DNA from: an uncultured Chloroflexia bacterium
Lineage (GTDB): Bacteria; Chloroflexota; Dehalococcoidia; GIF9; UBA5629
Assembly: GCA_963754385.1 (NCBI GenBank)
Contig: CAVWGE010000001.1
Coordinates: forward strand, 441,633-505,632
Reading direction: 5' to 3'
Length of the DNA: 64,000 bases
The translations under genes were made by a program, and so were the position numbers. This document shows positions 12,094 to 34,219 of the stretch, piece by piece; positions within the stretch are counted from its first letter, which is position 1; every line of letters begins with the position of its first letter. The notes beneath the pieces were generated by a model. The model was not told where the DNA came from and made no database searches. It saw only the letters and a program-made list of their open reading frames with translations.

Positions 12094-12095
12094 AA

Positions 12096-13469: not shown

Positions 13470-13561
13470 GGAGGGATCGCATAGTGGTCTAGTGCGGCCG
13501 CCTGCTAAGCGGTTGCTCCGAGAAATCGGGGTCATGGGTTCGAATCCCATTCCCTCCGCCA
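13470..13561 (+). tRNA. tRNA-Ser (anticodon GCT), CCA encoded
   Basis: Hand-folded. Acceptor GGAGGGA/TCCCTCC; anticodon stem GCCGC/GCGGT with loop CTGCTAA; long variable arm; T-arm ATGGG-TTCGAAT-CCCAT; 3' GCCA. Confidence 0.9.
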
Positions 13562-16566: not shown

Positions 16567-16944
16567 ATGGAAAAGATAATTCATGATGTAGATGTTCTTA
16601 TGAAAGGTGGACCTTATTCCCATGTTGTGGAAGCAGGAGGCTTTCTGTTTGTGTCTGGCATAGTTCCTACAGACCCAGAAAAGAAATTAGCCATAACTGA
16701 CGATGTAAAAGCGGCTACTGAACTGGTTCTCACCAACATAAAGAAAGCATTAGAGTCGGTAGGCAGTGGACTCGATAAAATTGTTAAAGCGACTGTTTTC
16801 CTGCGGGATATGGCGGACTTCAATGGCATGAACGAGGTTTATAGGGCCTTTTTTCCTGAAAATCCTCCAGCACGCTCCTGTGTAGCTGTAAGGGAAATTC
16901 CTGGCAATTATCCCCTAGAGATAGAAGTTATCGCCATAAAGTGA
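16567..16944 (+). CDS. ridA: RidA/YjgF-family reactive-intermediate deaminase
   Basis: 125 aa. GPYSHVVEAGGFLFVSGIVP...ATVFLRDMADFNGMNEVYRAFF...PARSCVAV...LEIEVIA. Confidence 0.85.
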   Translation: MEKIIHDVDVLMKGGPYSHVVEAGGFLFVSGIVPTDPEKKLAITDDVKAATELVLTNIKKALESVGSGLDKIVKATVFLRDMADFNGMNEVYRAFFPENPPARSCVAVREIPGNYPLEIEVIAIK

Positions 16945-16975
16945 GCCATTCGGGCAAGGTAACAAAACAGGTAAC

Positions 16976-16991
16976 ATGAAAGAATAATGCA
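16976..16991. repeat. Left (sub)terminal inverted repeat of the IS
   Basis: ATGAAAGAATAATGCA, the exact reverse complement of 18277-18292. Confidence 0.8.
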
Positions 16992-17054
16992 CCTCCGGAA
17001 ACTATGGTGTACAGTTTAGATTGAACAACCAAATATATAAAAAGGAGGTGCTGA

Positions 17055-18134
17055 ATGAAGTATATTGGTTTGGACTGTCACAAGCAATACGATTTCGCCA
17101 CATTGATTGACTCGGAGACAGGAGAAATAAGGTCGAAAAAATTGGCTCACAGAAAGGAGGTGTTTAAAGCGTTTATTGGTGGCAAAAGTGATAGCAAGAT
17201 GGTGATAGAGTCATGCTGGAATTGGTCCAAGACCTATGAGCTGGCCAAGGATCTGGTTGATGAGGTCATACTGGCCCATCCTCTTAAGATAAAGGCTATT
17301 GCCTCCGCAAAAATTAAGACCGATGCTATTGACTCTCGAACGCTGGCTCAACTATTAAAGGCTGATCTTATTCCCCAGGCTCATTTAAGGGAAGCAGACA
17401 ACCGGATCAAACAAAAAGTAATCAGACACAGGGCGTTCATGGTGGCAATGCGGACCAGGGTAAAAAATAAAGTGAACGATCTGGTAAGCAACCGCCTGCT
17501 ATCACCGACTCTTGAAGAATCAAAGCCTAAGAATCTGTTCTCAAAGAGAGGAAAAGGTGAAAACGGCGTGGCATGGCTTAAATCATTGGAATGGTCCGTA
17601 GAGGAAGATAAAAGAATATTTGAATCAGCTATGAGACTTATAGAGCACCTTAGCCATGAGATATCAGCTAGTAACCAGATGGTTGAGGAGATATACAAGA
17701 AAGACAAGGATGCCCAGCTGCTTTCCACCATTCCCGGAATAGGGAAAACCCTCTCGGTACTCATCAGCACCGAGATAGATGGCATTGGTCGCTTTAAATC
17801 AGCATCCAGGTTATCTTCTTATGCCGGTCTGGTACCTTCTACTCATTCTTCAGGAGGAAAGACATACCATGGGAAGATGATCTTGGAAGGAAATCGGTGG
17901 TTAAGGTGGGCATTGATTGAGGCTGTAGTGCCAGCATCTTATGCTGATGCTGGAATAAAACAACGGTTGGAAGCCCTCAGGAAAATTAAGAATGCAAATG
18001 TAGCCAAGACGATAATGGCCAGGCGGCTAATGAAAGTGGTGTACCATGTGCTTAAAGAAGGTAGACCTTATGTACCATCTGAGCTAATTGATTCAAGCCG
18101 GAGCCGCCTTTCAATTGCCTTAGCGAGCTCTTAG
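17055..18134 (+). CDS. IS110-family (DEDD) transposase
   Basis: 359 aa. N-terminus MKYIGLDCHKQYDF. C-terminal region IPGIGKTLSVLISTEIDGIGRFKSASRLSSYAGLVPSTHSSGGKTYHGKM is typical of the family. RBS AAGGAGG upstream. Confidence 0.9.
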   Translation: MKYIGLDCHKQYDFATLIDSETGEIRSKKLAHRKEVFKAFIGGKSDSKMVIESCWNWSKTYELAKDLVDEVILAHPLKIKAIASAKIKTDAIDSRTLAQLLKADLIPQAHLREADNRIKQKVIRHRAFMVAMRTRVKNKVNDLVSNRLLSPTLEESKPKNLFSKRGKGENGVAWLKSLEWSVEEDKRIFESAMRLIEHLSHEISASNQMVEEIYKKDKDAQLLSTIPGIGKTLSVLISTEIDGIGRFKSASRLSSYAGLVPSTHSSGGKTYHGKMILEGNRWLRWALIEAVVPASYADAGIKQRLEALRKIKNANVAKTIMARRLMKVVYHVLKEGRPYVPSELIDSSRSRLSIALASS

Positions 18135-18276
18135 GAGCCGCGCTCCTGAAACAGGTTAAGGGGCTCCGGATCTGACGTTACAGTGTGCACCTAAAATGGT
18201 GGCACGAATAGGAGGCTGAGCAAGGTCTTAACCGGGTAGGATATTGAGAATATTTGAATGAGCAAATAACAAGACT

Positions 18277-18292
18277 TGCATTATTCTTTCAT
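18277..18292. repeat. Right (sub)terminal inverted repeat of the IS
   Basis: TGCATTATTCTTTCAT, the exact reverse complement of 16976-16991. Confidence 0.8.
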
Positions 18293-18602
18293 AGGAGGCT
18301 ATTGTGCAATGTTAAGATGAAACACATAGTAATAAAATGGGGGGATGCCACTTGCCCGATTTTAGTCAGGGCTACCCTTACGGGAGGGGTGGAGGAAGCA
18401 ATTTAAGCTGCTAGGCAGAAAAAGTTAAAACGTCCTATAGCACCCTGATTTCCCCTGGCAGAGCCCACCCTGTCTGGTGGTAGTTCTCTATCTAGAAACG
18501 AACCTCTCTCCGAAAAGCTTCTTTTTGTTATTGACTAAACCCAAAATTCATTTCCTGCTCCCATGACGTTTTCCATGATGTATATTTTTCTGTATTCGCA
18601 TA

Positions 18603-19382
18603 CTATTTTCCTAGCACTATGCCTGCAGGATCTATTTCCTCTCGCAATATTCTCAATTCCTCACCAGTAGGTTCAGGGCTTGTTTCAATCTTGTCTGGTA
18701 GCATAATTTCGAATTGACTATTCTCCATCACCTCATCAACGCTGACTCCAGGATGTAACGAGATTAACTTGAGCCTTTTCGTTCTCTCGTCGAAGCCGTA
18801 GATACCTAACTGCGTGATGACCCTGTAAGGGCCTGTGCCTTTAGGTAATCCGGCTTTCTCTCTGGCATTTGGTCCATCAAGGAACCCCGGTGTCGTCAAG
18901 AAATCAAGCTTATTCACGAATGTCCTCTTTGACTGTTTGGCAATGATGATAATGAGCCTCTGCGCGAAAGAAGCTACGTCATTGGCACCACCGCTGCCAG
19001 GCAAGCGGCTCTTGGGCAGGTCATGCTCACCTATAACCGTGGTGTTGATGTTGCCAAACATATCCATCTGAGCCGCACCCAGGAATCCAAAATCGATATA
19101 TCCTGCTTGTGAAAGTGACATAGCATCGTGCATGCTAGAGGCAGCCACAGCTTTATGAAAGGTCCTGGATTCACCTACCGAAATAGGTAATTCAGGCAGC
19201 AAAGGTCCTAACCCTCCGGCTTCAAATACTATAACTAGTTTAGGAGCATGTGTTTTTTGAGCTAACATGGAAGCTATTATGGGAAATCCTGTACCCACAA
19301 AGACAGTTTTCTTATCTTCTAATAAACTTGCGCCAGTAAAGGCTAAGAACTCTCTAACGTTATATTTACCTTCTCTGAGCAT
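18603..19382 (-). CDS. Family-I CoA-transferase, subunit B (GctB-like)
   Basis: 259 aa. VIVFEAGGLG region around the catalytic-Glu position of beta subunits, and PGSGGANDVA. Immediately downstream of the A subunit. Confidence 0.8.
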   Translation of the reverse strand: MLREGKYNVREFLAFTGASLLEDKKTVFVGTGFPIIASMLAQKTHAPKLVIVFEAGGLGPLLPELPISVGESRTFHKAVAASSMHDAMSLSQAGYIDFGFLGAAQMDMFGNINTTVIGEHDLPKSRLPGSGGANDVASFAQRLIIIIAKQSKRTFVNKLDFLTTPGFLDGPNAREKAGLPKGTGPYRVITQLGIYGFDERTKRLKLISLHPGVSVDEVMENSQFEIMLPDKIETSPEPTGEELRILREEIDPAGIVLGK

Positions 19383-19422
19383 ATTTTTAAATTCTTCCTT
19401 TATCGGGAATTCTTGACTCTAT

Positions 19423-20433
19423 CTATTTCCGCCACGGAGCGACCATTGGCTCTCTAAGAAATTCTCTCCTTTTCAGGTAGTTCAACTTTCTTATGCCGCC
19501 ACAAAGCTCGAGATAATCATCGAAAGAGTCGACGCCGAACACGAATTTGCTTAAATATTCATCCACACCTTCCTGAGTTTTGGAGAGACTCAGCCACTCA
19601 GCTATATGCTCCTCATCGTAATAGTACATACCAGGCATTTCACAAGGATGTGAGCCATAGGGAACTTTGACCACAGCGTCTACTACAAGAAAGGGTATGA
19701 CTGTTTTCCACGGCTCTCTTTTAACTACTTCATTTTCAATAATTTCCTCGGTGGTTATTATTAACCTTCGCGCACATCTGGAAAGTTCGAAATCTTCCAC
19801 AAGGATGGCATCTATTTGGGCGTTACCATAGATGTCGCAGCGGTGTACGTGAATAAAGGCTACGTCCGGATAAGCCGCAGGAATTAAATTGATTGGTTTA
19901 CCACTGAATGGGTCTTTGACCACCTTGCAAGAGCTATAACTGCCGGTGTCAGTACCCAGCAGATTGCGACTCGGTATAAACGGTATACCCATCATAGCCG
20001 CCAGGAATCGCCATTGATATCCGGCATTGCTGGTTTCGGCAACTACTTTACATTGCCCGCTTTCTACCATTCTTCTGGAGGCTGGAGATAGCCCTCTGAG
20101 CTCGTGCCCGAAGGAATAGGCTACCTCTGCCCTGTTTACACAGCCGGCACCTACCAGAACGTCAAGATCGTGAACAGCTGTTTTACCGGCCATGACCAGG
20201 TTGCGTTTCTTCTGCCTGATAATCTCATAGACAATAGCCATAGACACCCTGATATGTCCAAAACCGCCGCTGGCGATGAAATCTCCATCACGAACAAATC
20301 TCGATACTGCCTCCCTAGCCGACATTGTTTTGTCCTTCAGCTCGCGAGACTTGTTCTTAAGCACCCAATCCCTGGCCTCGTCAGGGTCATGCCAGCCTAG
20401 TAGCTGTCCGCTGCCGTACTTTAATACTTCCAT
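19423..20433 (-). CDS. Family-I CoA-transferase, subunit A (GctA-like)
   Basis: 336 aa. FIASGGFGHIRVSMAIVYEIIRQ and large-subunit architecture. Paired with the B subunit. Substrate unknown. Confidence 0.8.
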   Translation of the reverse strand: MEVLKYGSGQLLGWHDPDEARDWVLKNKSRELKDKTMSAREAVSRFVRDGDFIASGGFGHIRVSMAIVYEIIRQKKRNLVMAGKTAVHDLDVLVGAGCVNRAEVAYSFGHELRGLSPASRRMVESGQCKVVAETSNAGYQWRFLAAMMGIPFIPSRNLLGTDTGSYSSCKVVKDPFSGKPINLIPAAYPDVAFIHVHRCDIYGNAQIDAILVEDFELSRCARRLIITTEEIIENEVVKREPWKTVIPFLVVDAVVKVPYGSHPCEMPGMYYYDEEHIAEWLSLSKTQEGVDEYLSKFVFGVDSFDDYLELCGGIRKLNYLKRREFLREPMVAPWRK

Positions 20434-20571
20434 CTACCTACCTCCTTTGCACAAAGTAGTAAGACTAACTCAAAGAATCAGTATTGCAGATGAGGTGATT
20501 ATGCTTACGCACTAATTGCAAATTGCGTTGTTTAAATCCTTAATATGTTGTCTTTGATTCATTAGATATGC

Positions 20572-20820
20572 CTAGGCCTGCACGCAATGATAAGAAACCT
20601 CTTCATCTTTCATAGCCTTGACAACTGTCTGTGCCACGTCATTTGGTTTGATGAACTATGCTTTAAATATCTTCTTCTCCTCCGACTTGATACCTTTGAC
20701 TTTTAATACCATTGGCTTCTTTCAGGTCGTCTGCCACGTAACGAGAGTGCAAAGAGTGCATGTGAGATTCGTGTACACATAACCGGGCAGAGTACCGAAT
20801 CCCCCGACCGTTTATAAGGT
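20572..20820 (-). pseudogene. Remnant of a short-chain dehydrogenase/reductase (C-terminal half, decayed)
   Basis: One minus-strand frame reads ...TVGGFGTLPGYVYTNLT...(TGA)...(TAG)FIKPNDVAQTVVKAMKDEEVSYHCVQA(stop). It resembles the SDR GIRVN-x-x-PG-x-V-x-T and PEDVA C-terminal motifs. It is interrupted by three in-frame stops (TAA, TGA, TAG) and lacks the Rossmann N-terminus. Confidence 0.4.
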
Positions 20821-20904
20821 GAAGGTATCAAATAAAGGCCTTCTAAGAAACCCACAACTGTAAATTTTGACGTACTGATGATAGCGAACTGTGGGGCATT
20901 GACC

Positions 20905-20990
20905 GGAACTCAATAATTTTATGGGTTTAGTGCTATTTAAACAATACTGGAAAACAATGATTTGGTCGTTGTCCTAGTCATTGTACTGGC
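20905..20990. repeat. Left arm of a long imperfect inverted repeat flanking the LuxR gene
   Basis: Its reverse complement aligns by hand with 22571-22667. The 27-bp perfect core AAACAATACTGGAAAACAATGATTTGG (20939-20965) matches CCAAATCATTGTTTTCCAGTATTGTTT (22600-22626). Confidence 0.8.
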
Positions 20991-21216
20991 GGGCGCATAA
21001 AAACAAACTGGCGGTAGGATGTCTTCGAGGAAAAACGGGGGCTTTAATGCTAAACAGGAGAACTTAGGCAATGGATAGAATATCTACGAGCGAAGGAAAT
21101 TGAATGAAGCGTAAGGCGATTGACAAGATATTAACCAGGGGAATATACTATCGTATGAAAGGGGGCCTCCACCATACTTTGGATCGTACGTACCGATACT
21201 TTCATAATAAAAAATC

Positions 21217-22344
21217 ATGATCAGCTTACAAAATAACCATTTATTAGATATTTCAAATTTAATAACTAATGCATCGGATAACTCATCTCTTCGTGAATTG
21301 AGGCTAAATGTTCTTAAGCTTATTCTACCGATATTTCAAGCGGATGGCGCATCGTTTTTTCTTACAGATAGGGAACGAAGATACCTTGATATTCCAGACG
21401 GCATTATACATGAATTAGACAGCAATCTGGCGCCGTATCAACAATATTATCAAAAATATGATCCATTTAGAGAAGTGATTTATTCAACGAATCTAACGTG
21501 TGCAACAGATAAAATGTTTGCTGATAAGTGGTGGGAAAATAGTATGTATTACAACGATTTCCTTAGACCGAAACAATTATCTCACGAAATGATTATCTGT
21601 ATTCGTTCAGAAAATAGTTTATATGGGAAAATAGGCATCTTCAGACAGATCGGTAGACCTTGTTTTAATGACCATGATAGAGCAATAGCATTAGTCTTAG
21701 CGAAGCATCTTAAATATGTAGTCGAAAACATAAATCTGTCTCGGGTATGTGAGGACAAGATAAACACATACAGAGAATTTGATGACTACCCTCTGATGGG
21801 AATAATAGTTTTAGATTTTGACATTAAACCAGTTTATCATAATGAAATGGCTAAAAAGATATGTTGGGCGATAAAGAAAGAAGGAGATATCGAACATAAT
21901 AGCCTCGGGCAAGGGAGTATATCAATACCATACCAAGTCATCCGAAATTGTCAGGATCTAAAATCTCACTTTAAATTTGGTGAAATTGGTGCTCCTTTCT
22001 GCGTAAGTAACATATACGTGAATCAAGGCAGAGAATATAAATTTAGATCCTTTTTGAATGCGCGGACTTCATATAGTAAAGAGATTCCTTCCTTTATCAT
22101 CTTAATAGAAGACTGTGCAGAACTGCGGCAGATAAAAGAAAGAACTGCAAAGTTCAAATATAAACTATCAAAGAGGGAACTGGAAATTTGCAGCCTAGTA
22201 AGGGACGGCCTAACTAATAAAGAAATCTCCACTGAACTCTTTCTTAGCCTATGTACTGTAGAAACTCATTTAAGAAACATTTTTGAAAAGACAAAGGCGA
22301 ATAACCGAGCAGAACTAATTAAGTTATTAGATTGTTGTTATTAA
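21217..22344 (+). CDS. LuxR/FixJ-type HTH transcriptional regulator with a roughly 300-aa N-terminal domain of unknown type
   Basis: 375 aa. C-terminal LSKRELEICSLVRDGLTNKEISTELFLSLCTVETHLRNIFEKTKANNRAELI. Very AT-rich: I counted 28 G+C in its first 100 nt. Confidence 0.85.
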   Translation: MISLQNNHLLDISNLITNASDNSSLRELRLNVLKLILPIFQADGASFFLTDRERRYLDIPDGIIHELDSNLAPYQQYYQKYDPFREVIYSTNLTCATDKMFADKWWENSMYYNDFLRPKQLSHEMIICIRSENSLYGKIGIFRQIGRPCFNDHDRAIALVLAKHLKYVVENINLSRVCEDKINTYREFDDYPLMGIIVLDFDIKPVYHNEMAKKICWAIKKEGDIEHNSLGQGSISIPYQVIRNCQDLKSHFKFGEIGAPFCVSNIYVNQGREYKFRSFLNARTSYSKEIPSFIILIEDCAELRQIKERTAKFKYKLSKRELEICSLVRDGLTNKEISTELFLSLCTVETHLRNIFEKTKANNRAELIKLLDCCY

Positions 22345-22570
22345 ACATTTAGTTGGGTAGTGCTCCTATATTCGCGCAAAACGATAGTGTAAGTGACCCC
22401 ACACCCCTACTTAAGAGATACCGCCCTATCTCATAGCCTCCCAACATCTGGTCAATGGCTTGCTTCAACGTTCTGCTTGACGGTGTTCTTCTTGTGGCGC
22501 GAGTTCTTCTTAGTCCCTTCAAGGCCCTTGGCTTTTTATTAAAGGTATCTTACGCCAATCTTTTTCATAC

Positions 22571-22667
22571 GCCAGCTATGGCATAACCAGGACAATAGCC
22601 CAAATCATTGTTTTCCAGTATTGTTTGAATGGTGCTGAAGCTATAAAATCATATATTATTAAGGTCC
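22571..22667. repeat. Right arm of the inverted repeat flanking the LuxR gene
   Basis: See the left arm. The 27-bp perfect core lies at 22600-22626. The flanks are diverged and contain two indels. Confidence 0.8.
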
Positions 22668-22734
22668 ACTGAAGTCTCAATTCGTTGCCATAATTATACA
22701 GGTATATACTCGCGTGGCTAATAGAATAAAGTGC

Positions 22735-22804
22735 CATGACAGTTCTTTCTTTATAAAAATAGAAAATTATGTTAGAGGAGGGCAAAATTGTCTTTAAGAA
22801 AAAG
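22735..22804 (+). repeat. Copy 1 of a roughly 70-bp direct repeat (promoter/operator-like module)
   Basis: CATGACAGTTCTTTCTTTATAAAAATAGAAAATTATGTTAGAGGAGGGCAAAATTGTCTTTAAGAAAAAG. About 60 of 70 positions are identical to 23793-23861 by hand alignment, including the 21-nt perfect block GCAAAATTGTCTTTAAGAAAA. Ends 50 nt upstream of the ATG at 22854. Confidence 0.75.
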
Positions 22805-22853
22805 TCTGTATAAAGTCTGAATTAAAAACAAAAAGGACGAAGGAGCAATAGCA

Positions 22854-23657
22854 ATGATTAAGTGTGTTTTTGTAATGGACTTGCCAAGTATGAATGAACT
22901 ACCAGAGATGGAGAGGTGGTACATTCGTTACCATGCTCCTGAGGCGATAAACATGCTCGGGCCATGGATGACGCGCTATCGAAGCTACCGTGCTGTTCCT
23001 CCACCACCCGGAGCTGAACACTACGGCTATTATAATTATCGTGTTAGCGAGCTTTGGTTTCGTAACATAACAGAACTACCTCCCGTAGTCGGCATGGGAA
23101 CCGACTTGAGAGGTCAATTCTTTGAGCTCACATGGCCACAGTGGATGAAAGGAGCGGCCAGCACTGAGCTTTACGCCCCCAAGTGGGCTGGGCAACCTGA
23201 AGGACCACACCCATGGGCTCAGGTCTTCGTTCCGGCCGCAGCTACCGAGGACTTTCTAGGTCACTTTACAGTGGATGAGAAAGCTATCTTGCGCTGGTAT
23301 ATCACCTTCAAATACCCGGACGGTGTCCCAGTCGAAGAAGGGGAAAAGTGGTTTCTCAACGTTCACTCCAAGGAGGTCATGAAGCAACCAGGCCTTATCC
23401 GGTATTTTAGCCACCGTGCAATCGAAGTACCAGGAATCCCTAACCAATACCCCTGGCACCGGGTTACCGAGCAATGGTACGAGAACTTCGATGGATGGCG
23501 CAAGTCAGTCATCGATTCGCCTCCCAAATATACCAAACCACCCTGGGCGAAGTATGATAAGTATCCCTTCCTCCATCCCTACGTTGACTTTCTGAGCACT
23601 TTTCTTCTGGAACGGCCAACTGATGACTTCTTAAGAGACTGGCGTTCGTATCCATAA
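22854..23657 (+). CDS. Hypothetical protein with two EthD-like (dimeric alpha/beta-barrel-like) repeats
   Basis: 267 aa. Internal repeat signature: MIKCVFVMDLP...EMERWYIRYHAPEA (N-terminal half) against ILRWYITFKYPDGVPVEEGEKWFLNVHSKEV...PGLIRYF (C-terminal half). RBS AAGGAG upstream. The fold assignment is inference. Confidence 0.55.
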   Translation: MIKCVFVMDLPSMNELPEMERWYIRYHAPEAINMLGPWMTRYRSYRAVPPPPGAEHYGYYNYRVSELWFRNITELPPVVGMGTDLRGQFFELTWPQWMKGAASTELYAPKWAGQPEGPHPWAQVFVPAAATEDFLGHFTVDEKAILRWYITFKYPDGVPVEEGEKWFLNVHSKEVMKQPGLIRYFSHRAIEVPGIPNQYPWHRVTEQWYENFDGWRKSVIDSPPKYTKPPWAKYDKYPFLHPYVDFLSTFLLERPTDDFLRDWRSYP

Positions 23658-23714
23658 TAAATCACTGGAAAACCAGGAAGCCTCGATTTTTAATAAACAA
23701 AGAGCGAGGAAAGC

Positions 23715-23800
23715 ATGATTAAAAGTGTTTTTAGTGTTCAAGCTTGGAACTCCAAATGACCTGCCTGCATTGGAGAGGGGTATATCTGGTATCATGATAG
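23715..23800 (+). pseudogene. Truncated, frameshifted 5' fragment of a paralogue of the 22854 gene
   Basis: ATGATTAAAAGTGTTTTTAGTG... aligns with ATGATTAAGTGTGTTTTTGTAATG... (MIKSVFSV against MIKCVFVM). After a frameshift it aligns again: LPALERG-YIWYH against LPEMERWYIRYH. It has its own GAGGA RBS and stops being alignable where direct-repeat copy 2 begins. Confidence 0.55.
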
Positions 23801-23861
23801 TTTTTTCGTTATAAAATAGAAATATGTGTTAGAGGAGTGCAAAATTGTCTTTAAGAAAAGG
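23793..23861 (+). repeat. Copy 2 of the roughly 70-bp direct repeat
   Basis: CATGATAGTTTTTTCGTTATAAAATAGAAATATGTGTTAGAGGAGTGCAAAATTGTCTTTAAGAAAAGG. Ends 113 nt upstream of the BKACE ATG. Confidence 0.75.
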
Positions 23862-23973
23862 TTAAAGAATCATGTATCGCAAATTGGCTTTCAAGTCATT
23901 TTGGGTGAACTTAGTGATGCCATATTTTGGGATGTTATCTCATGGAGAATAATCTATAAAGGAGGATTAGGAG

Positions 23974-25020
23974 ATGGCTAAAGACAAAGTTAACTGGGAT
24001 TATATTGAGGAATGGAAAAGGAAGGAAGAGGGAGACTTTAAGACCATCGGGTTTCCTTTCGGCCTTCCAGAATTCATGGATCCTTTTGGAACAAAGTATG
24101 GGCTGGGTGTGGAGATACAGCCTGCCTGGAAGGTACCTAGAAAAGTTTTCATTTGCCAGGCTATAGTTGGCGCATTCATAAGTAAAAGAGCTAATCCAAA
24201 CCAGCCAATCGAGCCAAAGGAAATCAGAGACCAAGCACTAGCTTGCCTTGAGGCCGGAGCGCCCAATGTACATGTCCATGTAAGGGACAAAGACGGATAT
24301 AATGTGTTAGATCCGGAACTCTTTCACTTCGTTATTGACCCCATCCGCGAGAAGTATCCTGACAGGATTGTGTGCGCATGCTTAGTTGCGGACCGACCCG
24401 GGCAATGGGCCAAGCTAATACAGGTCCTGAAAGATGGCCTCGTTGACCAAACACCCATCAACTGTTTTGCTGTTTATTTAGGAGATACTGCTGTATTGAA
24501 GCCGCCTCATGTCATGATAGAGAAGACCAGGCTCTGCCAGGAACACGGGGTCAAGCCGCAACTCGCAGTATATTCAGACGGGGATATTGATAATGCGGAT
24601 CGATATCTTATCAAAACGGGACTCCTCAAAAAACCATATTACTGGATTATTCTTCCAGCGCTTCCCGGCTGTTCTCCTATGCACAGTCCCAAGGCTATGG
24701 TTGAGGGGTTGATGCATTATGTTAACCGTATCAAGGAGATCGATGAGGATTCTGAGATTGTAGTATGTGCAGCAGGAAGAGCTTCGAGCTATCTTGCTAC
24801 GTTTGCTCTCTTACTCGGACTCGACATACGAGTTGGAATGGAAGACACGGTGTGGATGTGGCCGCACCGAAACGAGTTAATAAAAAACAATGTCGAAATC
24901 TTTAAGATGTTCAAACAGCTGATTGAGCTTCTTGGACGCGAAATCATAAGTCCCAACGAGTTCCGGAAAAAGGTGGGAATGAGGATGCCGGGTAAACAGG
25001 CAGTAAAATCCGAGGTATGA
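23974..25020 (+). CDS. Beta-keto acid cleavage enzyme (BKACE/DUF849; 3-keto-5-aminohexanoate cleavage enzyme family)
   Basis: 348 aa. APNVHVHVRDKDG (His-x-His metal ligands) and DIRVGMEDT (Glu ligand) match the Kce-type TIM-barrel pattern. Substrate unknown. Confidence 0.75.
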   Translation: MAKDKVNWDYIEEWKRKEEGDFKTIGFPFGLPEFMDPFGTKYGLGVEIQPAWKVPRKVFICQAIVGAFISKRANPNQPIEPKEIRDQALACLEAGAPNVHVHVRDKDGYNVLDPELFHFVIDPIREKYPDRIVCACLVADRPGQWAKLIQVLKDGLVDQTPINCFAVYLGDTAVLKPPHVMIEKTRLCQEHGVKPQLAVYSDGDIDNADRYLIKTGLLKKPYYWIILPALPGCSPMHSPKAMVEGLMHYVNRIKEIDEDSEIVVCAAGRASSYLATFALLLGLDIRVGMEDTVWMWPHRNELIKNNVEIFKMFKQLIELLGREIISPNEFRKKVGMRMPGKQAVKSEV

Positions 25021-25362
25021 AAGCTTAGAGGCATTCTTTATGCAGTATAAGCATGAACAACGAGCTTCTTAGCACAAATAGTATCCGAGTAGAATAGAAG
25101 TTACAGAGAGAGCACCAACAGAGAACAATCCACAAGGATTTCGGCATCAAAAGTATGGAGAAATGCCAACAAATACTAAAAGGGCAGAGCAGCGAAACGG
25201 ATAGTTACAGAGTTAAAATTGGAGTGAAGTCCTGAAATTTGACACTCTAGGTTAGGAAGACTAGTAGTGCCCCAAGGGAGGTGCAGCATGTTCACCTTAG
25301 ATTAATTTTAGGCGATATGTCGAGTTACATAAACATTATTCATGCTCAAAAGGAGGTAAAGA

Positions 25363-26544
25363 ATGAGACACGTAAAATATGCAGGATTAGTTATGGCAGT
25401 TGTCATTGTCATAATGGTACTTAGCCTAGCCCTGTCCTGTGCGCCGGCTGCGCCAAAACAACCCATAAAGATAGGGCTACTTTTTGATTATTCTGGCATG
25501 GGCGCGGCAGATATACCCTTCCACGAAGACGGAGCAAGACTCAAGCTCGACGAGGTTGGTTGGCAGATTGAAGGGAGGAAGATAGAATTGATACCTGCAG
25601 ACAACGGAGGTGACCCAGTAAAAGGTGTAGAAGCAGTGAAAAAACTGGTAGAAGTAGACAAAGTGGATGTCATTATAGGACCGGTTTGGGGTCACGTTGC
25701 TTTGGCGATAGCACCTGTTTTGGCACAGTCGAGAACACCCAACATCATTCCTTCGGGACAGACTATGGGTGTAATACAGGCCGGTGCTGGTAATGAGTTC
25801 CTGCTACGAGGAACATTTTCTGGGAACGCCTACTATTCAGGCGTCTATGCCTATGAAGACCGGGGTTATCGGACGGCTGTGGTTATGTATGACGATTTTG
25901 TAACCGGAGAAATGTTTGTCACAGGTTTCACAAAGCCCTTTGAAGAGAGGGGTGGGACTGTCGTTCAGACAGTGAAGCCACCTTTAGGTACTTTCGACTT
26001 CGCGCCATATTTAACTGGTATAAAGACAGCCGATGTACTTGCCATGTGGCTCCAACCCCCCGAACTCCCTCCATTTTACAAGCAATATAATGAATTCGGG
26101 CTGAAGATGCCAATAATATATACGAGCGACACGGCGGAAAACGAGCTATGGACAGCAGTTGGTGATTATTGTATAGGTACCATCGCTCAGCATGAATATT
26201 CTCCGTTCATTGATACTAACACCAACAAACAATTTGTGGAGCTGGCAAAGAAAAAGACTGGTGGAATGCCCCCGGTTATGTCCTTTCAGGAGGCGGGTTA
26301 TACAGCTGTAACTGTTTTCTTAGAAGCAGTAAAGGCTACAAAAGGTGATACGACACATGATAAAATCATCGAGGCACTGAAAAAGGTTAGTGTCGATACT
26401 CCTGAGGGGAAGATTTCCTTTACCAATGAAGGAATGGGGGTTGGAAACGAACTAATTGTGAAAATAGCCAAAAAAGACGGTAGGTATGAGAAGGAGATTC
26501 TCAAAACATACGACCAAGTAGTACGCAAAGCACCTTGGGAATAG
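25363..26544 (+). CDS. ABC transporter substrate-binding protein, LivK/type-1 PBP family; signal peptide with Cys (probable lipoprotein)
   Basis: 393 aa. N-terminus MRHVKYAGLVMAVVIVIMVLSLALSCAPAAP, then IKIGLLFDYSGMGA. Followed by LivHMGF-like genes. Confidence 0.85.
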   Translation: MRHVKYAGLVMAVVIVIMVLSLALSCAPAAPKQPIKIGLLFDYSGMGAADIPFHEDGARLKLDEVGWQIEGRKIELIPADNGGDPVKGVEAVKKLVEVDKVDVIIGPVWGHVALAIAPVLAQSRTPNIIPSGQTMGVIQAGAGNEFLLRGTFSGNAYYSGVYAYEDRGYRTAVVMYDDFVTGEMFVTGFTKPFEERGGTVVQTVKPPLGTFDFAPYLTGIKTADVLAMWLQPPELPPFYKQYNEFGLKMPIIYTSDTAENELWTAVGDYCIGTIAQHEYSPFIDTNTNKQFVELAKKKTGGMPPVMSFQEAGYTAVTVFLEAVKATKGDTTHDKIIEALKKVSVDTPEGKISFTNEGMGVGNELIVKIAKKDGRYEKEILKTYDQVVRKAPWE

Positions 26545-26614
26545 TCGGCCTTGAGCACAATGGAACCTCACCTGGTAGGGCTAGTTTTCAGCCCTGCCAG
26601 GTGAGGCATGCGTT

Positions 26615-27472
26615 ATGGAAACAATTTTGCTAAATGTTTTGAATGGCATTACATTTGGCATTATGCTATTTCTTATCGCCAGTGGCCTCGCAGTTATATA
26701 TGGTTTCATGGGGGTTCTCAACCTTGCTCACGGGGTATTTTATATACTCGGGGCATATTTTGGATTAGCTGCGCTAGTTTATGGTGTTCCCTTTGTCTGG
26801 GCAGCTTTGGGTGGTGGAATTGCAGTTGGACTAGTTGGCTTAGTAGTAGAACTGGTATTCTTAAAGCGCCTACATAAACAGCTTAATGAGCAGGTGTTGC
26901 TGACTTTAGGGTTCGTCTACATATTCGCTAATTTGGCTAGGTGGATCTGGGGACCATATGCTAGGGTCATTGATGCGCCCGCTATTGTAGCTGGTTCTAT
27001 CAGTATTGGTAGTGCTTCCTTCCCTGTTTATCGTCTAGTGATGATTGCTGCCGGCCTAGCTCTAGCCGCGGGTTTATGGTTGTTCACTGGGAAGACTCGA
27101 ACCGGTTCCATTATTCGAGCTGGGATGGATGATAAGGAAATGACGGCTGGGTTGGGTGTGAACTATGGTCTGGTTTCCAGTGCCGTTTTCTTCACAGGTA
27201 CATTTGTGGGCGGGGTTGCCGGCTTTATAGGGCTACCAATCATCCCAGTATACCCTGGTATGGTCTTTGACATTTTACTTTTGGCACTGATTGTTATCGT
27301 TGTTGGTGGAGTCGGACGTATTGAAGGTACCCTATTAGGCGCTGTGGTGATAGGTCTCATCGATTCTCTTGGAAGAGCCTACTTCCCTGATTTCGCCTAC
27401 TTTACCATGTATTTAGCTATGATACTCATATTGTTGCTCAAACCCAGCGGTCTGTTAGGGAGGGGAAAATAA
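26615..27472 (+). CDS. Branched-chain-amino-acid-type ABC permease (LivH-like)
   Basis: 285 aa polytopic membrane protein. GVLNLAHG motif and operon context. Confidence 0.85.
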   Translation: METILLNVLNGITFGIMLFLIASGLAVIYGFMGVLNLAHGVFYILGAYFGLAALVYGVPFVWAALGGGIAVGLVGLVVELVFLKRLHKQLNEQVLLTLGFVYIFANLARWIWGPYARVIDAPAIVAGSISIGSASFPVYRLVMIAAGLALAAGLWLFTGKTRTGSIIRAGMDDKEMTAGLGVNYGLVSSAVFFTGTFVGGVAGFIGLPIIPVYPGMVFDILLLALIVIVVGGVGRIEGTLLGAVVIGLIDSLGRAYFPDFAYFTMYLAMILILLLKPSGLLGRGK

Positions 27473-27477
27473 AAAAG

Positions 27478-28485
27478 ATGGGAGAGGCGAACGACAACAC
27501 TGCAAAACGGGCATGGCTGACAGGGCGACTCAATCGCATTGCGTACATTATTATCGGACTGTTCTTTGTAATATTACCTTTATTTATGCCCCACTATCTT
27601 CAAGGTATTATGACCAAAGCCATTATCTTTGCAGTCTTTGCTATGAGCCTAAACCTGCTCATTGGATATGCAGGCCTTTTCTCACTAGGACATGCCGCCT
27701 ACTTTGGTGTAGCAGCTTACACTAGTAGTATACTAACGGTGCGCTATGGTGTTGAGAGCTTCTGGCTGGCTGCCCCAGCTGGCATTTTGATGGCAGTGCT
27801 TGTTGCTGGCGCGTTTGGTTTCATTGCGCTTCGACTATCTGGTGTATACTTCTTACTGATTACTCTTGCTCTTGGTCAATTGCTTTATAGTGTTGCCTTG
27901 AAGTGGCAAACAATGACCGGAGGTACTAATGGCCTTATAAGTGTGGGCTATCCGGATCTGGGCTTGCCATGGATTACAATGAATGACCTGTCTTTTTATT
28001 ACTTGGCTTTTGCCATTCTTGTTATCAGCCTTTTCTTGTTATATCGGTTGATTGAGTCTCCATTTGGAGTTGCTCTACAAGGTATCCGCGAAAGTGAAAC
28101 TCGAATGCGCAGCCTAGGCTATAATACTTGGCTGTACAAATATATCGCCTTTGTTATTGCCGGACTGTTTGCCGGGGTGGCTGGCATACTATTTGGATAT
28201 TATAGTACTGTTCTAGTTCCTACAGATATGGGTGTCCTCACTTCTACTCTGGTATTGCTTATGGTAATAATAGGGGGTAGTCGAGTTTTTTGGGGACCGG
28301 TCACTGGAGCTATATTGATAACATTCATAGTACATTATTCGAGCATTTACACTCCTGAACGCTGGCCTCTAATTCTAGGTTCTCTCTTTGTTTTAGCTGT
28401 TATGTTTCTTCGAGGCGGGATTAGCAAATATCTACTGAAACTATGGAAGAGGTTAGAGTACCGCTATGGAAGCATTAAGAGTTGA
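27478..28485 (+). CDS. Branched-chain-amino-acid-type ABC permease (LivM-like)
   Basis: 335 aa. GYAGLFSLGHAAYFGVAAY motif. Confidence 0.85.
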   Translation: MGEANDNTAKRAWLTGRLNRIAYIIIGLFFVILPLFMPHYLQGIMTKAIIFAVFAMSLNLLIGYAGLFSLGHAAYFGVAAYTSSILTVRYGVESFWLAAPAGILMAVLVAGAFGFIALRLSGVYFLLITLALGQLLYSVALKWQTMTGGTNGLISVGYPDLGLPWITMNDLSFYYLAFAILVISLFLLYRLIESPFGVALQGIRESETRMRSLGYNTWLYKYIAFVIAGLFAGVAGILFGYYSTVLVPTDMGVLTSTLVLLMVIIGGSRVFWGPVTGAILITFIVHYSSIYTPERWPLILGSLFVLAVMFLRGGISKYLLKLWKRLEYRYGSIKS

Positions 28486-29218
28486 AGGTTTATGCAAAAA
28501 CTACGGTGGAGTTCGCGCACTAACAAACATCTGTTTCAGTATTAAAGTTGGAGAACGTCTGGCAATTATTGGACCTAATGGAGCAGGGAAAACAACCCTT
28601 TTTAACATCCTCGATGGTCAGTTAAGTGCTGATGATGGCCAGTTTTCTTTCTTCGGGCAAGACATTAGTTTTCTGCCCACATACGTCCGTACCCGTCTTG
28701 GCCTGGTTCGCTCTTTCCAATTAACGACCCTTTTTCCCAATCTCACAGTTCTTAATAATACTATGCTGGCTATTCACGGTATCTTGCCATCACGTTTTGA
28801 AATGTTTCGCCCAATTATTTCATATAAAGATCTTTACGATAAGGCTCACGAACTGCTTGACTCGATGGACTTATGGCGAAGAAGAGACGAGCTAGTCGAA
28901 GCAATATCTTATGGAGAGCAACGTAAGTTAGAAATTGCTCTATGTCTGGCTGCAAAACCCAAACTATTGCTGCTCGATGAACCCAGTTGTGGGTTAACCA
29001 CTGACGAAAGCAAGGATATTAGCACTCGTATCCGTGACTTGGGAACTGATATTACAGTAATTCTCATCGCTCACGACATAGACTTAGTGTTTGATGTTGC
29101 TGAGCGAATTATTGTCCTCCACCATGGCGAAATCGTAGCCGATGGAACATGTGATGAAATCCAGTGTAACTCATTGGTTAAAGAAATATATATGGGAAGT
29201 GAGGCAACTGTGGAATAA
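28466..29218 (+). CDS. ABC transporter ATP-binding protein (LivG-like)
   Basis: 250 aa. Walker A GPNGAGKTT, signature YGEQRKLEIA, Walker B LLLLDEP. Confidence 0.9.
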   Translation: MEALRVEGLCKNYGGVRALTNICFSIKVGERLAIIGPNGAGKTTLFNILDGQLSADDGQFSFFGQDISFLPTYVRTRLGLVRSFQLTTLFPNLTVLNNTMLAIHGILPSRFEMFRPIISYKDLYDKAHELLDSMDLWRRRDELVEAISYGEQRKLEIALCLAAKPKLLLLDEPSCGLTTDESKDISTRIRDLGTDITVILIAHDIDLVFDVAERIIVLHHGEIVADGTCDEIQCNSLVKEIYMGSEATVE

Positions 29219-29922
29219 TGTTAAAGCTGGTTGATATCCATACTTATTATGGGGAAAGCTACGTCCTTCAGGGTGTTTCACTGGAGGTCAAGGAGGGTTC
29301 TGTAGTAGGTCTCTTGGGACGTAATGGCATGGGTAAAACAACCACAATCAGGTCCATAATGAGCTTCACTCCGCCACGCCGGGGTGCAATATATTTCAAG
29401 GGAGAGAATATCGCTGGAATGCAACCGCACCGGATTGCCCAAATGGGCATTGGTCTAATTCCGCAGGGAAGGCGTATTTTCCCATCGTTGAGTGTTGAAG
29501 AAAACCTTATCATGGCAGCACGCGGAGGAGACAAAATTGGTGCTTGGACATTAGACCGAATGTATTCCCTTTTCCCAATACTCAAGGAACGAGCTAGGTA
29601 CAAGGGCAATCTCCTAAGTGGTGGTGAACAGCAGATGCTGACTATCGGCCGAGCCTTAATGACTAATCCAGAATTGCTTTTGATGGATGAGCCTTCAGAG
29701 GGACTAGCTCCTATAATCGTTCAACAAGTTGGCAGGATTATTAGTCAACTCAAAGAGAGCGGCCTTTCTATTTTATTGGTAGAGCAGAACCTCCCCATGG
29801 TTGTTGGGCTAGCCGACTACGTGTATATTATAAGTAAAGGCGCATTAGTGTACCAGTCTACAGTGGAAGAATTAAGAGATAATGAAGAAGTTAAAGCCAA
29901 ATACCTTGGTGTAACTGGCTGA
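29218..29922 (+). CDS. ABC transporter ATP-binding protein (LivF-like)
   Basis: 234 aa. GRNGMGKTT, LSGGEQQML, LLLMDEPSEGLAP. Confidence 0.9.
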   Translation: MLKLVDIHTYYGESYVLQGVSLEVKEGSVVGLLGRNGMGKTTTIRSIMSFTPPRRGAIYFKGENIAGMQPHRIAQMGIGLIPQGRRIFPSLSVEENLIMAARGGDKIGAWTLDRMYSLFPILKERARYKGNLLSGGEQQMLTIGRALMTNPELLLMDEPSEGLAPIIVQQVGRIISQLKESGLSILLVEQNLPMVVGLADYVYIISKGALVYQSTVEELRDNEEVKAKYLGVTG

Positions 29923-30191
29923 GAGAGCCGGTTATAGGCACTCATCTGTACCGGCCATAACATGCTTAAGCTATTCGGAATATGGAAATATGGATTACTC
30001 AAACAGGTACTTTAGACTAAAGGTTAATTTAATAAAGCAGCATGGCTCAAAAAAGCCTTGGATTCAAAGCTAAAGGGAGGACAAAATAAAACATGGTTAA
30101 AACATAAGTTTAGGGTCAGTATCTTTAGTAGCACAAAGCCAAATGTTGACTCAAACCAGGAGCACGAATAAACAGCAAAGGAGGTGTAAAT

Positions 30192-31616
30192 ATGGCGGTA
30201 GATTTAAGTGTTGAGATCAAAACTAACAGGGGGTCACTGGTCTTAAGGAATCCTCTCCTCCCAGGCTCTTCGGAGGTAGCAGGGGACGAAATCACTATTA
30301 GAAGGTGCATTGAGAATGGTGTTGGGGGAATCGTAACAAAGTCAGTCGGCCACCTGTCTTCACCCGGTCCGGCCGTAGTCACAAGCAAACCATGGGCATT
30401 TCCTCTTGATAGATTTGGGCGTCAATATAGAGGGGCCTGGTTAATGCAGGCGGGGTATTTTGCGGAGGAAGAAAACTTTGAAAAAATAATTGAGAAAGCT
30501 GTACCCAAATGGTATAAGATATGCCACGATGCGGGAGTACCATTGATAAACAGCATACTCGAACTTGGCTGGGGAATGGAGACTCATGATATAGCAGAAT
30601 TGTGGGCACGAATAGCGAAGATGTTGGGTGAGGCTGGTTCCGATGCTATTGAATTGGATGCATCTTGCCCAGCGTCAAAAGTAGTCTATGGTAAGGGGGA
30701 TCAGCCCATTCTTGCCTCAGAGGAGCTATGGGCAGATGAAAAATTTGCCCGCAGGATTATTAATAGAGTGATGAATGTTACAAGGGTGCCAATTGGAGCA
30801 AAAATGTCTCTCTACCATAACCCGGTGGCTCTCCACGCGAAAGCTTGGGCAGATGAAGGCCTTAACTTTCTTTCCGGCCATAATGTATTGCCATCTGCAG
30901 GCGTGTTTATAGATGTAGAAAGGGAAGAGGTTTATGGTACGCCGGGAGAATCTATGTATGCCGCTGGTCCGACCATGGTACCGTTAAGCCTGAATAGGCT
31001 GTCATATGTTTTAAGAGTAGTTGACATACCTGTAATAGGAAGTGCAGGTATTTTTAAGGCGAGCGATGTAATTCAATATTTGTTGTTGGGATGTACTGCG
31101 GTTCAGGTAACTAGTGCAGCTTATTACAAAGGTCACAAAGTATACAAGGAATTACTTGAGGGCTTAGAGGATTGGATGAAGAGACATGGCTACACAAGGA
31201 TAGACCAATTCCGAGGGAAGCTGCTAGAGGAGGCATCATGTCTCCGGTCTGAGTGGGAAGAGAAGTACGGTTATAAGATGCAGCCTTATGAGAAGGGCAA
31301 GGAATTTAAGTATCTACTTACGGGCGGCAGAAGTCCGTCTCCTGTAGTTCCAAGGTTTGATACGGAGAAATGCACTTTGTGTGGTGCATGCGATGATACA
31401 TGTCTGTATGGAGTAATTAAGCTTGATAAAGAAAGGGAAACATTGAACATAAACGACAACCTTTGTATGGGTTGCGGCATGTGCATTGGGATATGTCCGA
31501 ATAATCCCGGTGCACTTTGGCTAGAAGATAAGAGAACAGGGGAAGTGGTATGGGATGGGGTAGGGATGGTAAAGAGCTTTAAGAAGAAGGAAGTTGGGGG
31601 GTATTCATTGGCTTAG
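30192..31616 (+). CDS. Dihydroorotate/dihydropyrimidine-dehydrogenase-like TIM-barrel flavoprotein fused to a 2x[4Fe-4S] ferredoxin domain
   Basis: 474 aa. LRNPLLPGSS...GGIVTKS, IELDASCP, IPVIGSAGI...LLGCTAVQVTSA (DHOD-family pattern). C-terminal CTLCGACDDTC and CMGCGMCIGICP. Physiological substrate unknown. Confidence 0.65.
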   Translation: MAVDLSVEIKTNRGSLVLRNPLLPGSSEVAGDEITIRRCIENGVGGIVTKSVGHLSSPGPAVVTSKPWAFPLDRFGRQYRGAWLMQAGYFAEEENFEKIIEKAVPKWYKICHDAGVPLINSILELGWGMETHDIAELWARIAKMLGEAGSDAIELDASCPASKVVYGKGDQPILASEELWADEKFARRIINRVMNVTRVPIGAKMSLYHNPVALHAKAWADEGLNFLSGHNVLPSAGVFIDVEREEVYGTPGESMYAAGPTMVPLSLNRLSYVLRVVDIPVIGSAGIFKASDVIQYLLLGCTAVQVTSAAYYKGHKVYKELLEGLEDWMKRHGYTRIDQFRGKLLEEASCLRSEWEEKYGYKMQPYEKGKEFKYLLTGGRSPSPVVPRFDTEKCTLCGACDDTCLYGVIKLDKERETLNINDNLCMGCGMCIGICPNNPGALWLEDKRTGEVVWDGVGMVKSFKKKEVGGYSLA

Positions 31617-31878
31617 GTTTTGCTCAACAATAATTTTCTTATTATTAGGCTTTTCTAAAGGGATAAAGACGAGGCAGAGGTAGCCTGCCCCCCAACAATT
31701 ATGCCAATTGTCAAGCCCTGCTGGATTCCACTTTTTGAGTCCCTGTTCAATAAACGTGCTGAACAATAGTCAGTTTTGTTCAGGCTTGTAGCTGAGCCGC
31801 TATTTAGTTACAAAGAACTTATTTTCAACAAGCCCCGGCAATTCATTATCTTTTTACGTCTAAATCCCCTTAAATGGC

Positions 31879-33357: not shown

Positions 33358-33430
33358 TCGGGGTGAGAGGATTTGAACCTCCGACCTCATGGTCCCAAAC
33401 CATGCGCGCTAGCCACTGCGCTACACCCCG
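33358..33430 (-). tRNA. tRNA-Pro (anticodon TGG), CCA not encoded
   Basis: Hand-folded on the minus strand: CGGGGTG-TA-GCGC-AGTGGCTA-GCGC-G-CATGG-TTTGGGA-CCATG-AGGTC-GGAGG-TTCAAAT-CCTCT-CACCCCG-A. Confidence 0.9.
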
Positions 33431-34218: not shown

Positions 34219-34219
34219 C

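Follow-up and report, generated by a model that had tools for sequence, protein, structure and literature searches.

Within a 64,000-nucleotide stretch of contig CAVWGE010000001.1 (hereafter the window), an uncultured, non-dechlorinating-type bacterium of the Dehalococcoidia (Chloroflexota) carries an accessory genomic island, composed of one IS110-family insertion sequence (IS) element and a 13.5-kb catabolic module and acquired between ridA and lexA. The module encodes a homologue of bacterial chalcone isomerase (CHI), a divergent zinc enzyme of the DUF849/BKACE family, a flavoprotein of the dihydroorotate dehydrogenase/dihydropyrimidine dehydrogenase (DHOD/DPD) type fused to an iron-sulfur domain (DHOD-FeS), a two-subunit CoA-transferase, a Liv-type ABC importer and a LuxR-type regulator. 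In the reading favoured here, to which we give an even chance, the island would be a mobile anaerobic catabolic module for flavonoid-type polyphenols, with non-orthologous enzymes at the reductase and carbon-carbon (C-C) cleavage steps. The island and the genes of its module are as follows.

16943..31821, no strand: accessory island of 14,879 bp, in place of the 142-bp ridA-lexA spacer of sister genomes.
18603..19382, minus strand: CoA-transferase beta subunit, GctB-like (PF01144; match to 1POI_B at E=2.1e-49).
19423..20433, minus strand: CoA-transferase alpha subunit, GctA-like (PF01144, 117 bits).
21217..22344, plus strand: LuxR/GerE-type regulator with a 300-residue N-terminal domain (PF00196).
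22854..23657, plus strand: bacterial-type CHI homologue of 267 amino acids (aa) in two domains (PF18232, Chalcone_N, 38.3 bits against a cut-off of 25).
23974..25020, plus strand: divergent DUF849/BKACE-like zinc enzyme of 348 aa with a conserved 55-aa N-terminal extension (PF05853, 168.8 bits; HVHVRD and VGMEDT motifs).
25363..29922, plus strand: Liv/HAAT-type ABC importer LivKHMGF, comprising a binding lipoprotein, two permeases and two ATPases (Pfam, NCBIfam).
30192..31616, plus strand: class-1 DHOD/DPD-like flavoprotein of 474 aa fused to a 2x[4Fe-4S] domain (PF01180 and Fer4 families).

The left flank of the island holds ybeY, miaB, nadB and ridA, and the right flank holds lexA, two small open reading frames (ORFs) and HydC/NuoF-like genes. 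In the two closest contigs, L082 and L083 (NadB 96% identical at the aa level, DNA 93% identical at the nucleotide (nt) level; L numbers denote the loci compared), the order runs miaB-nadB-ridA-lexA-84aa-90aa-HydC-NuoF with no intervening genes. Both align to the window by blastn at 93% identity as far as 16942 and again from 31822, and only 142 bp lie between the two points of divergence. The block is likewise missing from L084 (NadB 90% identical at the aa level). NadB homologues also place the source bacterium among uncultured Chloroflexota/Dehalococcoidia. Because these sister contigs lack it at the same site, the block is an accessory, rearranged island. A first-pass annotation of this DNA had placed an accessory block between miaB-nadB-ridA and lexA, and the presence or absence check in sister genomes bears it out, although the extent given at that time, 16976-31616, was slightly too narrow. 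The gene calls of that annotation also largely hold under Pfam and NCBIfam profile annotation of the ORFs.

The connection to flavonoids begins with the 267-aa protein. It had been described as tandem EthD-like, a likeness that stands at the level of the fold only; its family is that of bacterial CHI. By phmmer, the protein matches CHIera of Eubacterium ramulus (3ZPH/4D06) over its full length (residues 6-266 against 12-278; E=1.9e-25). An AlphaFold2 model built on 30 homologues (pLDDT 84.1, pTM 0.85) returned CHIera for all of its top 16 Foldseek matches (TM 0.78-0.82, E ~1e-19), the next in line following at E 6e-5; to an EthD protein there is a weak match over one domain of the model. The catalytic His33 and the carbonyl-binding Tyr48 of CHIera are both kept, as His27 and Tyr42, and His27 is conserved in at least 90% of the 30 homologues. 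The same two residues have been used as markers of CHI activity (PMC8361940). From its sequence and modelled structure, the protein is assigned to the bacterial CHI family and is a predicted isomerase.

The genomic surroundings of this family are equally informative. A scan of one genome per species yielded 137 CHI-family loci spread over many phyla, of which 79 GTDB loci were retrieved, their neighbours clustered and representatives annotated. The commonest neighbour is a PhlG/DAPG-hydrolase-like protein of the phloretin hydrolase (Phy) family (22 loci), followed by SDR proteins (15), FMN_red proteins of ~310 aa (12), Zn-ADH, glyoxalase and OYE+Pyr_redox reductases of the enoate reductase/Fcr type (6). 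The ~310-aa FMN_red proteins represent the WrbA-like flavone reductase (FLR) type (PMC7862272). In L062 and L038, CHI adjoins a 3HCDH protein, a BKACE with Trp at the position of Kce Glu14, an SDR and a cyclase; this is the full PGR-DPGC-TfD-TAL set, which constitutes a complete phloroglucinol pathway (PMC10470551). Close relatives of the window protein show the same company. The homologues in L107 (57% identical) and L076 (71%, the match being truncated) each stand in a CHI-S15-FMN_red-PhlG cluster, and in L002 (55%) a homologous Liv ABC system is coupled to PhlG-CHI-FMN_red. As relatives at 40-71% identity thus adjoin phloretin hydrolase, flavone reductase, OYE reductase or PGR/DPGC/TfD/TAL, gene context argues that the CHI family is firmly embedded in anaerobic flavonoid catabolism. 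The first-pass annotation, which could match the full gene combination to no named pathway, overlooked the CHI homologue and with it the link to anaerobic flavonoid degradation. Pairs of molybdopterin oxidoreductase and Fer4_11 genes also lie near CHI in 7-8 loci (including L076, L041, L015 and L006); these may be pyrogallol-phloroglucinol transhydroxylase-like or benzyl-ether-reductase-like and may form a further link to polyphenols.

The DUF849 protein keeps the HVHVRD and VGMEDT ligand motifs that were reported for it, and its His-His-Glu zinc site (H100, H102 and E290) is invariant in the BKACE alignment. It nonetheless falls under all NCBIfam equivalog cut-offs, scoring 127.7 against 382, 90.3 against 350 and 88.7 against 430 for the Kce, 3-oxoadipate and 3,5-dioxohexanoate types. 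Alignment to Kce and BKACE15, with BKACE15 numbering anchored through L011, places Ala198 at the position of the catalytic base Glu (BKACE15 E171, Kce E143), within 'KPQLAVY' as against 'FEFECY' and 'PEVEVY'. The E171L variant of BKACE15 is inactive (PMC11961710). Additionally, the Glu preceding the catalytic Glu is replaced by Gln, the STGG motif by CLVADRPG, and Kce Glu14 by Phe68. Ala occupies the catalytic position in 15/15 clade sequences checked, 14 of them at 69-96% identity and the fifteenth, from L103, at 43%. An exhaustive search of 1.84 billion representatives confined the non-Glu pattern to the ~25-35 nearest, more distant canonical BKACEs being all Glu-Glu. Since the base Glu is uniformly missing across the clade, its loss is a conserved trait and not decay, and the Glu-less proteins make up a clade of their own, conserved and no pseudogenes. 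The same replacement makes acetyl-CoA Claisen chemistry doubtful for this enzyme. The enzyme had been proposed to use acetyl-CoA in cleaving a beta-keto acid, with the CoA-transferase feeding the reaction; that proposal was drawn from the metal ligands, which are intact, whereas typing of the active site gives Ala198 in place of the catalytic Glu. The DUF849 superfamily includes a hydrolase, cis-epoxysuccinate hydrolase, and this enzyme is among the PDB matches of the island protein.

A second unusual active site is found in the DHOD-FeS protein. It keeps Cys159, Lys204 and Asn231, which correspond to the catalytic Cys130, the FMN-binding Lys164 and Asn193 of DHODA, as well as eight invariant cluster Cys residues in two CxxCxxCxxxC motifs (C394/397/400/404 and C425/428/431/435). 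The pyrimidine/orotate-binding Asn residues of the SCPN loop are lost, DHODA Asn127 and Asn132 being replaced by Asp156 and Ala161. Scores again lie under the curated NCBIfam cut-offs (PreA: 126.9, cut-off 335; PyrD: 100.3, cut-off 269). The subfamily is tiny, with 21 clusters at 48% identity or above among 5.8 billion sequences, after which identity drops to 35%. Distant relatives in L104 and L105 adjoin NuoE/NuoF/Fer2 electron-input genes and SnoaL-type proteins, a neighbourhood that fits a C=C reductase supplied with electrons by NADH or ferredoxin and acting together with an isomerase. In both loci the homologue is directly followed by the NuoE/NuoF/Fer2 genes. In the window, host HydC-like (Fer2_4) and NuoF-like genes (33499-36097, minus strand) lie 2 kb from the island's DHOD-FeS gene. 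This closeness is probably coincidental because sister genomes carry those genes without the island, although they are still candidate electron-input partners.

The CoA-transferase is assigned by its matches to family I, glutaconate CoA-transferase type; Glu54 of the beta subunit aligns with the glutamate of the GctB VES motif, which we take to be the active-site Glu. Counterparts of the GctA-like gene occur in the module at L086 and L088 and beside CHI in L030, L048 and L054. For the binding lipoprotein of the importer, five of the top six PDB matches are 4zpj, 4ey3, 4f06, 4evs and 4evq, ahead of Leu/Ile/Val and urea binders. The ligand of 4zpj is not known; the other four are taken to be Rhodopseudomonas palustris benzoate-derivative binding proteins, a type that binds aromatic acids. 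The N-terminal part of the LuxR-type regulator (window 21217-22146) has no Pfam or PDB match, and a sensor domain was not found there. Homologues of the regulator stand beside CHI in L086 (95%) and in L087 and L088 (41-42%). The regulator of L080 is unrelated in its N-terminal part and carries PAS_4. The island's LuxR gene is 10 points below its neighbours in guanine-plus-cytosine (GC) content.

That these genes belong together, as first supposed, is shown by their co-location elsewhere: module proteins recur at 64-96% identity on at least five independent metagenomic contigs. L086 holds CoA-transferase, LuxR, CHI, BKACE-like, LivKHMGF and DHOD-FeS genes at 89-97% aa identity to the window, its island copy being 94% identical. 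L087 carries LuxR, CHI, BKACE-like and Liv genes, a CHI relic and DHOD-FeS. In L088, DHOD-FeS and Liv genes lie on one strand, and LuxR, CHI, BKACE-like and both CoA-transferase subunit genes (CoATa, CoATb) on the other. L081 has LivF, DHOD-FeS, BKACE-like and CHI genes, and L080, with a 69% CHI relative, has PAS-LuxR, CHI, SDR, Liv, BKACE-like, a second CHI, glyoxalase, DUF362 and FMN_red genes. Common to the window and these five loci are CHI, the DUF849 clade and the Liv ABC importer; DHOD-FeS, CoA-transferase and LuxR are variable, and four gene orders are seen. Recurrence of the set with shuffled order on at least five other contigs argues that the island genes form one functional module, conserved but freely rearranging.

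The module also appears to move between genomes. L086 departs from the window 40 bp before the right end of the island and continues into unrelated membrane-protein genes instead of lexA, the module in L087 and L088 borders on IS3-type (rve) genes, and in L103 an 88%-identical IS110 copy (6276-7616) lies 2.4 kb upstream of a DHOD-FeS/DUF849 pair. Mobility of the module is supported by these three observations. The pair in L103 (10001-12635) consists of a DHOD-FeS gene (79% aa identity) and a gene for a 314-aa Glu-less DUF849 protein (43%) without CHI; an integrase and an IS1595 transposase are encoded in the region as well. This is a second genome in which the IS110 and the DHOD-FeS/DUF849 pair travel together. 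Where the right-junction region of L086 (11719-12993) is compared with window 31783-31822, a short CTATTTAG motif is seen at or near the right junction of both, and the empty site of L082 has it as well; the motif may mark the core of an insertion site, or its recurrence may be chance.

On the favoured reading, a flavonoid-type phenolic would be imported by the Liv-type ABC system. The CHI homologue would then open the O-heterocycle, converting a flavanone to a chalcone by reverse Michael addition, and the DHOD-FeS protein would reduce the conjugated C=C bond in place of an OYE-type enoate reductase or a WrbA-like flavone reductase. The resulting beta-dicarbonyl would be split by the zinc-dependent DUF849 enzyme, by a reaction other than the canonical acetyl-CoA Claisen exchange, in a step that may replace the missing phloretin hydrolase. 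An acid product would finally be activated by the CoA-transferase, with all steps under control of the LuxR-type regulator. A more exacting version of this scheme proposes a new, mobile anaerobic flavonoid route in sediment Dehalococcoidia, in which a DHOD/DPD-like Fe-S ene-reductase acts on a chalcone or flavone and the Glu-less zinc DUF849 enzyme carries out a CoA-independent (hydrolytic or lyase) beta-triketone C-C cleavage instead of phloretin hydrolase. This version is possible but rather unlikely; were it true, CoA-independent cleavage would add a reaction type to those of the BKACE superfamily.

Several observations weigh against a flavonoid pathway of this kind. Genes for Phy, FLR, OYE reductase, PGR, cyclase and 3HCDH are absent from the island and from the whole 64-kb window, and the PGR (SDR), DPGC (cyclase, PF04199) and TfD (3HCDH) that go with TAL are absent from the island, the window and the module loci L080-L088. 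For the pathway to be complete, two enzymes would have to perform functions never demonstrated in their families. Phy occurs in 0/6 module loci as against 22/79 other CHI loci, a difference that is not significant (~p=0.14, simple binomial), and L030 and L048 hold a canonical BKACE and a GctAB-like CoA-transferase alongside Phy, so that BKACE-type genes need not replace Phy. Complementarity of Phy and DUF849 was considered as evidence of functional replacement and dropped, the counts being too small and L030 and L048 carrying both BKACE and Phy. The A-ring contacts of CHIera are lost (Gln69 to Arg63, Thr71 to Ser65 and Gln101 to Pro95), and the true substrate may therefore differ from a classical flavanone; these contact residues vary too in the distant branches 1-2 of the family (PMC8361940). 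Members of the DUF849 clade occur without CHI in L089, L092, L095, L096 and L098, beside SDRs, thiolase/ECH genes or an OYE reductase. Lastly, HAAT-type binding proteins do not usually take flavonoid aglycones as ligands.

Some of these points would be met if the module degraded something other than a flavonoid, such as another O-heterocyclic or beta-dicarbonyl aromatic acid (a chromanone, coumarin, pyrone or resorcylate-type humic or polyketide fragment), with the CHI-fold protein serving as a general-purpose isomerase that needs no cofactor, and with reduction, cleavage and CoA activation of the product left to the other enzymes. The altered A-ring contacts and the occurrence of the DUF849 clade without CHI would suit such a substrate, the binding protein is similar to aromatic-acid receptors that bind carboxylates, a GctAB-type transferase points to a (di)carboxylic acid, and the DHOD-FeS relatives of L104 and L105 pair with SnoaL-type isomerases, not with CHI. 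However, the nearest CHI relatives (55-71%) stand in canonical Phy/FLR clusters, the 69% relative in L080, which shares the DUF849 clade, is accompanied by an FLR-like FMN_red and a second CHI paralogue, and the catalytic His and Tyr are kept. A non-flavonoid substrate is accordingly judged unlikely. A comparably low standing is given to the proposal that the BKACE-like enzyme is still acetyl-CoA-dependent, for instance as a triacetate acetoacetate-lyase on phloroglucinol-derived 3,5-dioxohexanoate or a substituted analogue, with the CoA-transferase recycling acetoacetate and another residue, such as Asp202 or Asp204 of the conserved YSDGD, serving as base. The PF05853 score of 168.8 bits and the intact zinc ligands agree with a working BKACE, as does Phe68, which replaces the Glu14 that binds the substrate amino group in Kce and is aromatic like Trp16 of CsTAL. 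Gene context offers some agreement as well, in that L088 has the order CHI-DUF849-CoATa-CoATb on one strand, in the canonical flavonoid clusters of L030 and L048 a true BKACE and a homologous CoA-transferase (44-51% identity) accompany Phy-CHI, and the TAL pathway includes an acetoacetate CoA-transferase (PMC10470551). Set against this are the Ala in 15/15 clade sequences and the non-Glu residue in the ~25-35 nearest representatives, at a position where E171L abolishes BKACE15 activity (PMC11961710), together with the replaced STGG motif and NCBIfam equivalog scores far under every cut-off. Moreover, neither the module nor the window has a PGR, DPGC or TfD as a source of triacetate, and the TAL-type BKACEs of L062 and L038 share no more than 29% identity with the island enzyme. 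Such retained acetyl-CoA chemistry is, on balance, improbable. Finally, a mosaic of unrelated genes gathered by IS activity and without shared function might be suspected from the IS, the repeats, the gene relic and the low-GC regulator gene. Yet on at least five independent contigs the same six functions are again found together, their proteins 64-96% identical and their gene orders different, which is the signature of selection for co-location; because the module recurs with different gene orders, this explanation is effectively refuted and only a very slight chance is left to it.

The mobile element and the traces of rearrangement within the island are listed here.

16966..~18305, plus strand: single IS110-family element at the left island edge (transposase ORF 17055-18134; NF033542, 183.9 bits against a cut-off of 140).
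20913..21013, no strand: left arm of an inverted repeat of ~100 nt that brackets the LuxR gene, conserved in L086 only.
22553..22652, no strand: right arm of the same inverted repeat, on the other side of the LuxR gene.
22735..22805, plus strand: direct repeat, copy 1 (71 nt), upstream of the CHI gene, 87% identical to copy 2.
23719..23778, plus strand: 5'-end relic of another CHI paralogue (tblastn with residues 2-21 of L080 CHI1: 70% identity, E=0.007).
23793..23862, plus strand: direct repeat, copy 2, upstream of the BKACE-like gene.

The ends of the IS110 element are delimited by the 88%-identical copy in L103, and its 3' non-coding end, folded as a possible guide RNA, gave an uninformative z = -1.3. 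The description of the island as IS-bounded has to be withdrawn: self-blastn found no second IS copy in the 64-kb window, and a search for long terminal repeats of the island showed that none exist. With a single element at the left edge, this is not the composite-transposon arrangement, which has an IS at both ends.

Both repeat families are confined to the window and the 94%-identical L086; L087 and L088 do not have them. A role as conserved regulatory sites was rejected on account of this restriction and of promoter-like matches at chance level, and the repeats and the CHI relic are read, from their distribution, as lineage-specific duplications and rearrangement scars, not conserved operators. 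The direct repeat holds the start of a short ORF, MLEEGKIVFKKKSV* in copy 1 (window 22774-22818) and a GTG-started ORF of 51 aa in copy 2 (window 23826-23981), which may encode a leader peptide or stem from duplication of the 5' end of a gene. The CHI relic is readable, frame-shifted, as 'MIKSVF...NDLPALER'. A CHI paralogue has also decayed in L087, where a second, independent relic sits between LivF and DHOD-FeS (11882-12117, minus strand), and in L080, L001 and L049 a pair of CHI paralogues is intact; two CHI genes were probably present in the ancestral module. Of the repeats, gene fragment and pseudogene from which the first-pass annotation deduced rearrangement, the repeats and one gene fragment are real. 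The decayed SDR gene is not: tblastn with module-linked SDRs found no match in the island, a purpose-built SDR hidden Markov model applied to the six-frame translation reached a best i-E of 2.7 with a negative score, and a six-frame Pfam scan of the two large gaps returned no match. The patchy base composition was correctly noted, with GC contents of 0.344 for the LuxR gene, 0.39-0.41 for the gaps beside it and 0.504 for CHI, as against 0.44-0.475 for everything else, including the flanks.

An Rfam scan of 12-36 kb detected two tRNAs and nothing else. These genes (13470-13558, plus strand, 57.9 bits; 33358-33430, minus strand, 70.6 bits) flank the wider region, and as neither abuts a junction of the island, the island is not tRNA-targeted. 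Further along the window, a 516-aa Abhydrolase_10 protein (PF20091; 58626-60176, minus strand) is encoded amid the housekeeping genes topA, dprA, aspS, trigger factor and aroB/aroK.

The interest of the island lies in two small enzyme clades, the Glu-less DUF849 proteins and the Fe-S DHOD-like reductases, whose active sites predict chemistry unlike their family names. Both are concrete targets for enzyme work and can serve as markers when polyphenol metabolism is annotated in metagenomes. To our knowledge, gut Firmicutes are the source of nearly all genes known for anaerobic polyphenol turnover. With the island, abundant and uncultured Dehalococcoidia become possible polyphenol consumers, the trait moving between genomes as a compact module. 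Anaerobic turnover of plant polyphenols in peat and sediments matters for the 'enzyme latch' view of carbon storage. That sediment Chloroflexi ferment pyrogallol or phloroglucinol had already been proposed from transhydroxylase genes (PMC3971608), and the ecological idea is therefore not new. In the open-access literature, no paper was found that links DUF849/BKACE to flavonoids or describes this gene combination.

Comparison with characterized systems shows where the island follows precedent and where it departs from it. Canonical BKACEs (Kce, 2Y7D; BKACE15, 8RIO/8RIP/9HNF) share the TIM-barrel DUF849 domain and the His-His-Glu zinc site with the island protein, whereas the latter has Ala for the base Glu, Gln for the neighbouring Glu, CLVADRPG for STGG and a 55-aa N-terminal extension, and belongs to a small separate clade. 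The DHOD-FeS protein resembles PreA (NAD-dependent dihydropyrimidine dehydrogenase) and class-1 DHOD in its FMN barrel, catalytic Cys and FMN Lys, and its C-terminal 2x[4Fe-4S] domain is as in PreA and DPD domain V; however, it scores under the PreA cut-off, has two SCPN-loop Asn residues replaced and lacks a PreT partner, and its relatives neighbour NuoE/NuoF/Fer2 modules. The phloroglucinol cluster of Clostridium scatologenes (PGR, DPGC, TfD and TAL with an acetoacetate CoA-transferase; PMC10470551) likewise places a BKACE-family gene and a family-I CoA-transferase in a polyphenol context, and in both systems the amino-binding Glu of Kce is replaced by an aromatic residue, Phe in the island and Trp in TAL. 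Unlike that cluster, the island has no PGR, cyclase-family DPGC or 3HCDH-type TfD, and its BKACE-like protein is ~29% identical to the TAL type and without the catalytic Glu of that type. The flavone-flavanone genes of E. ramulus and Flavonifractor plautii (FLR, CHI, enoate reductase/Fcr and phloretin hydrolase) share with the island a full-length CHI of the same two-domain fold with His33/Tyr48 equivalents, as well as a flavoprotein of the ene-reductase type; homologues of Phy, FLR and Fcr flank relatives of the CHI elsewhere. In contrast to these genes, the island is without Phy (PhlG family), a WrbA-like FLR or an OYE-type reductase, and its reductase is a DHOD/DPD-like FMN protein with 2x[4Fe-4S]. 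To the known set it adds a Glu-less DUF849 enzyme always beside the module's CHI, an ABC importer and a GctAB-type CoA-transferase, all in a member of the Dehalococcoidia and not a gut Firmicute.

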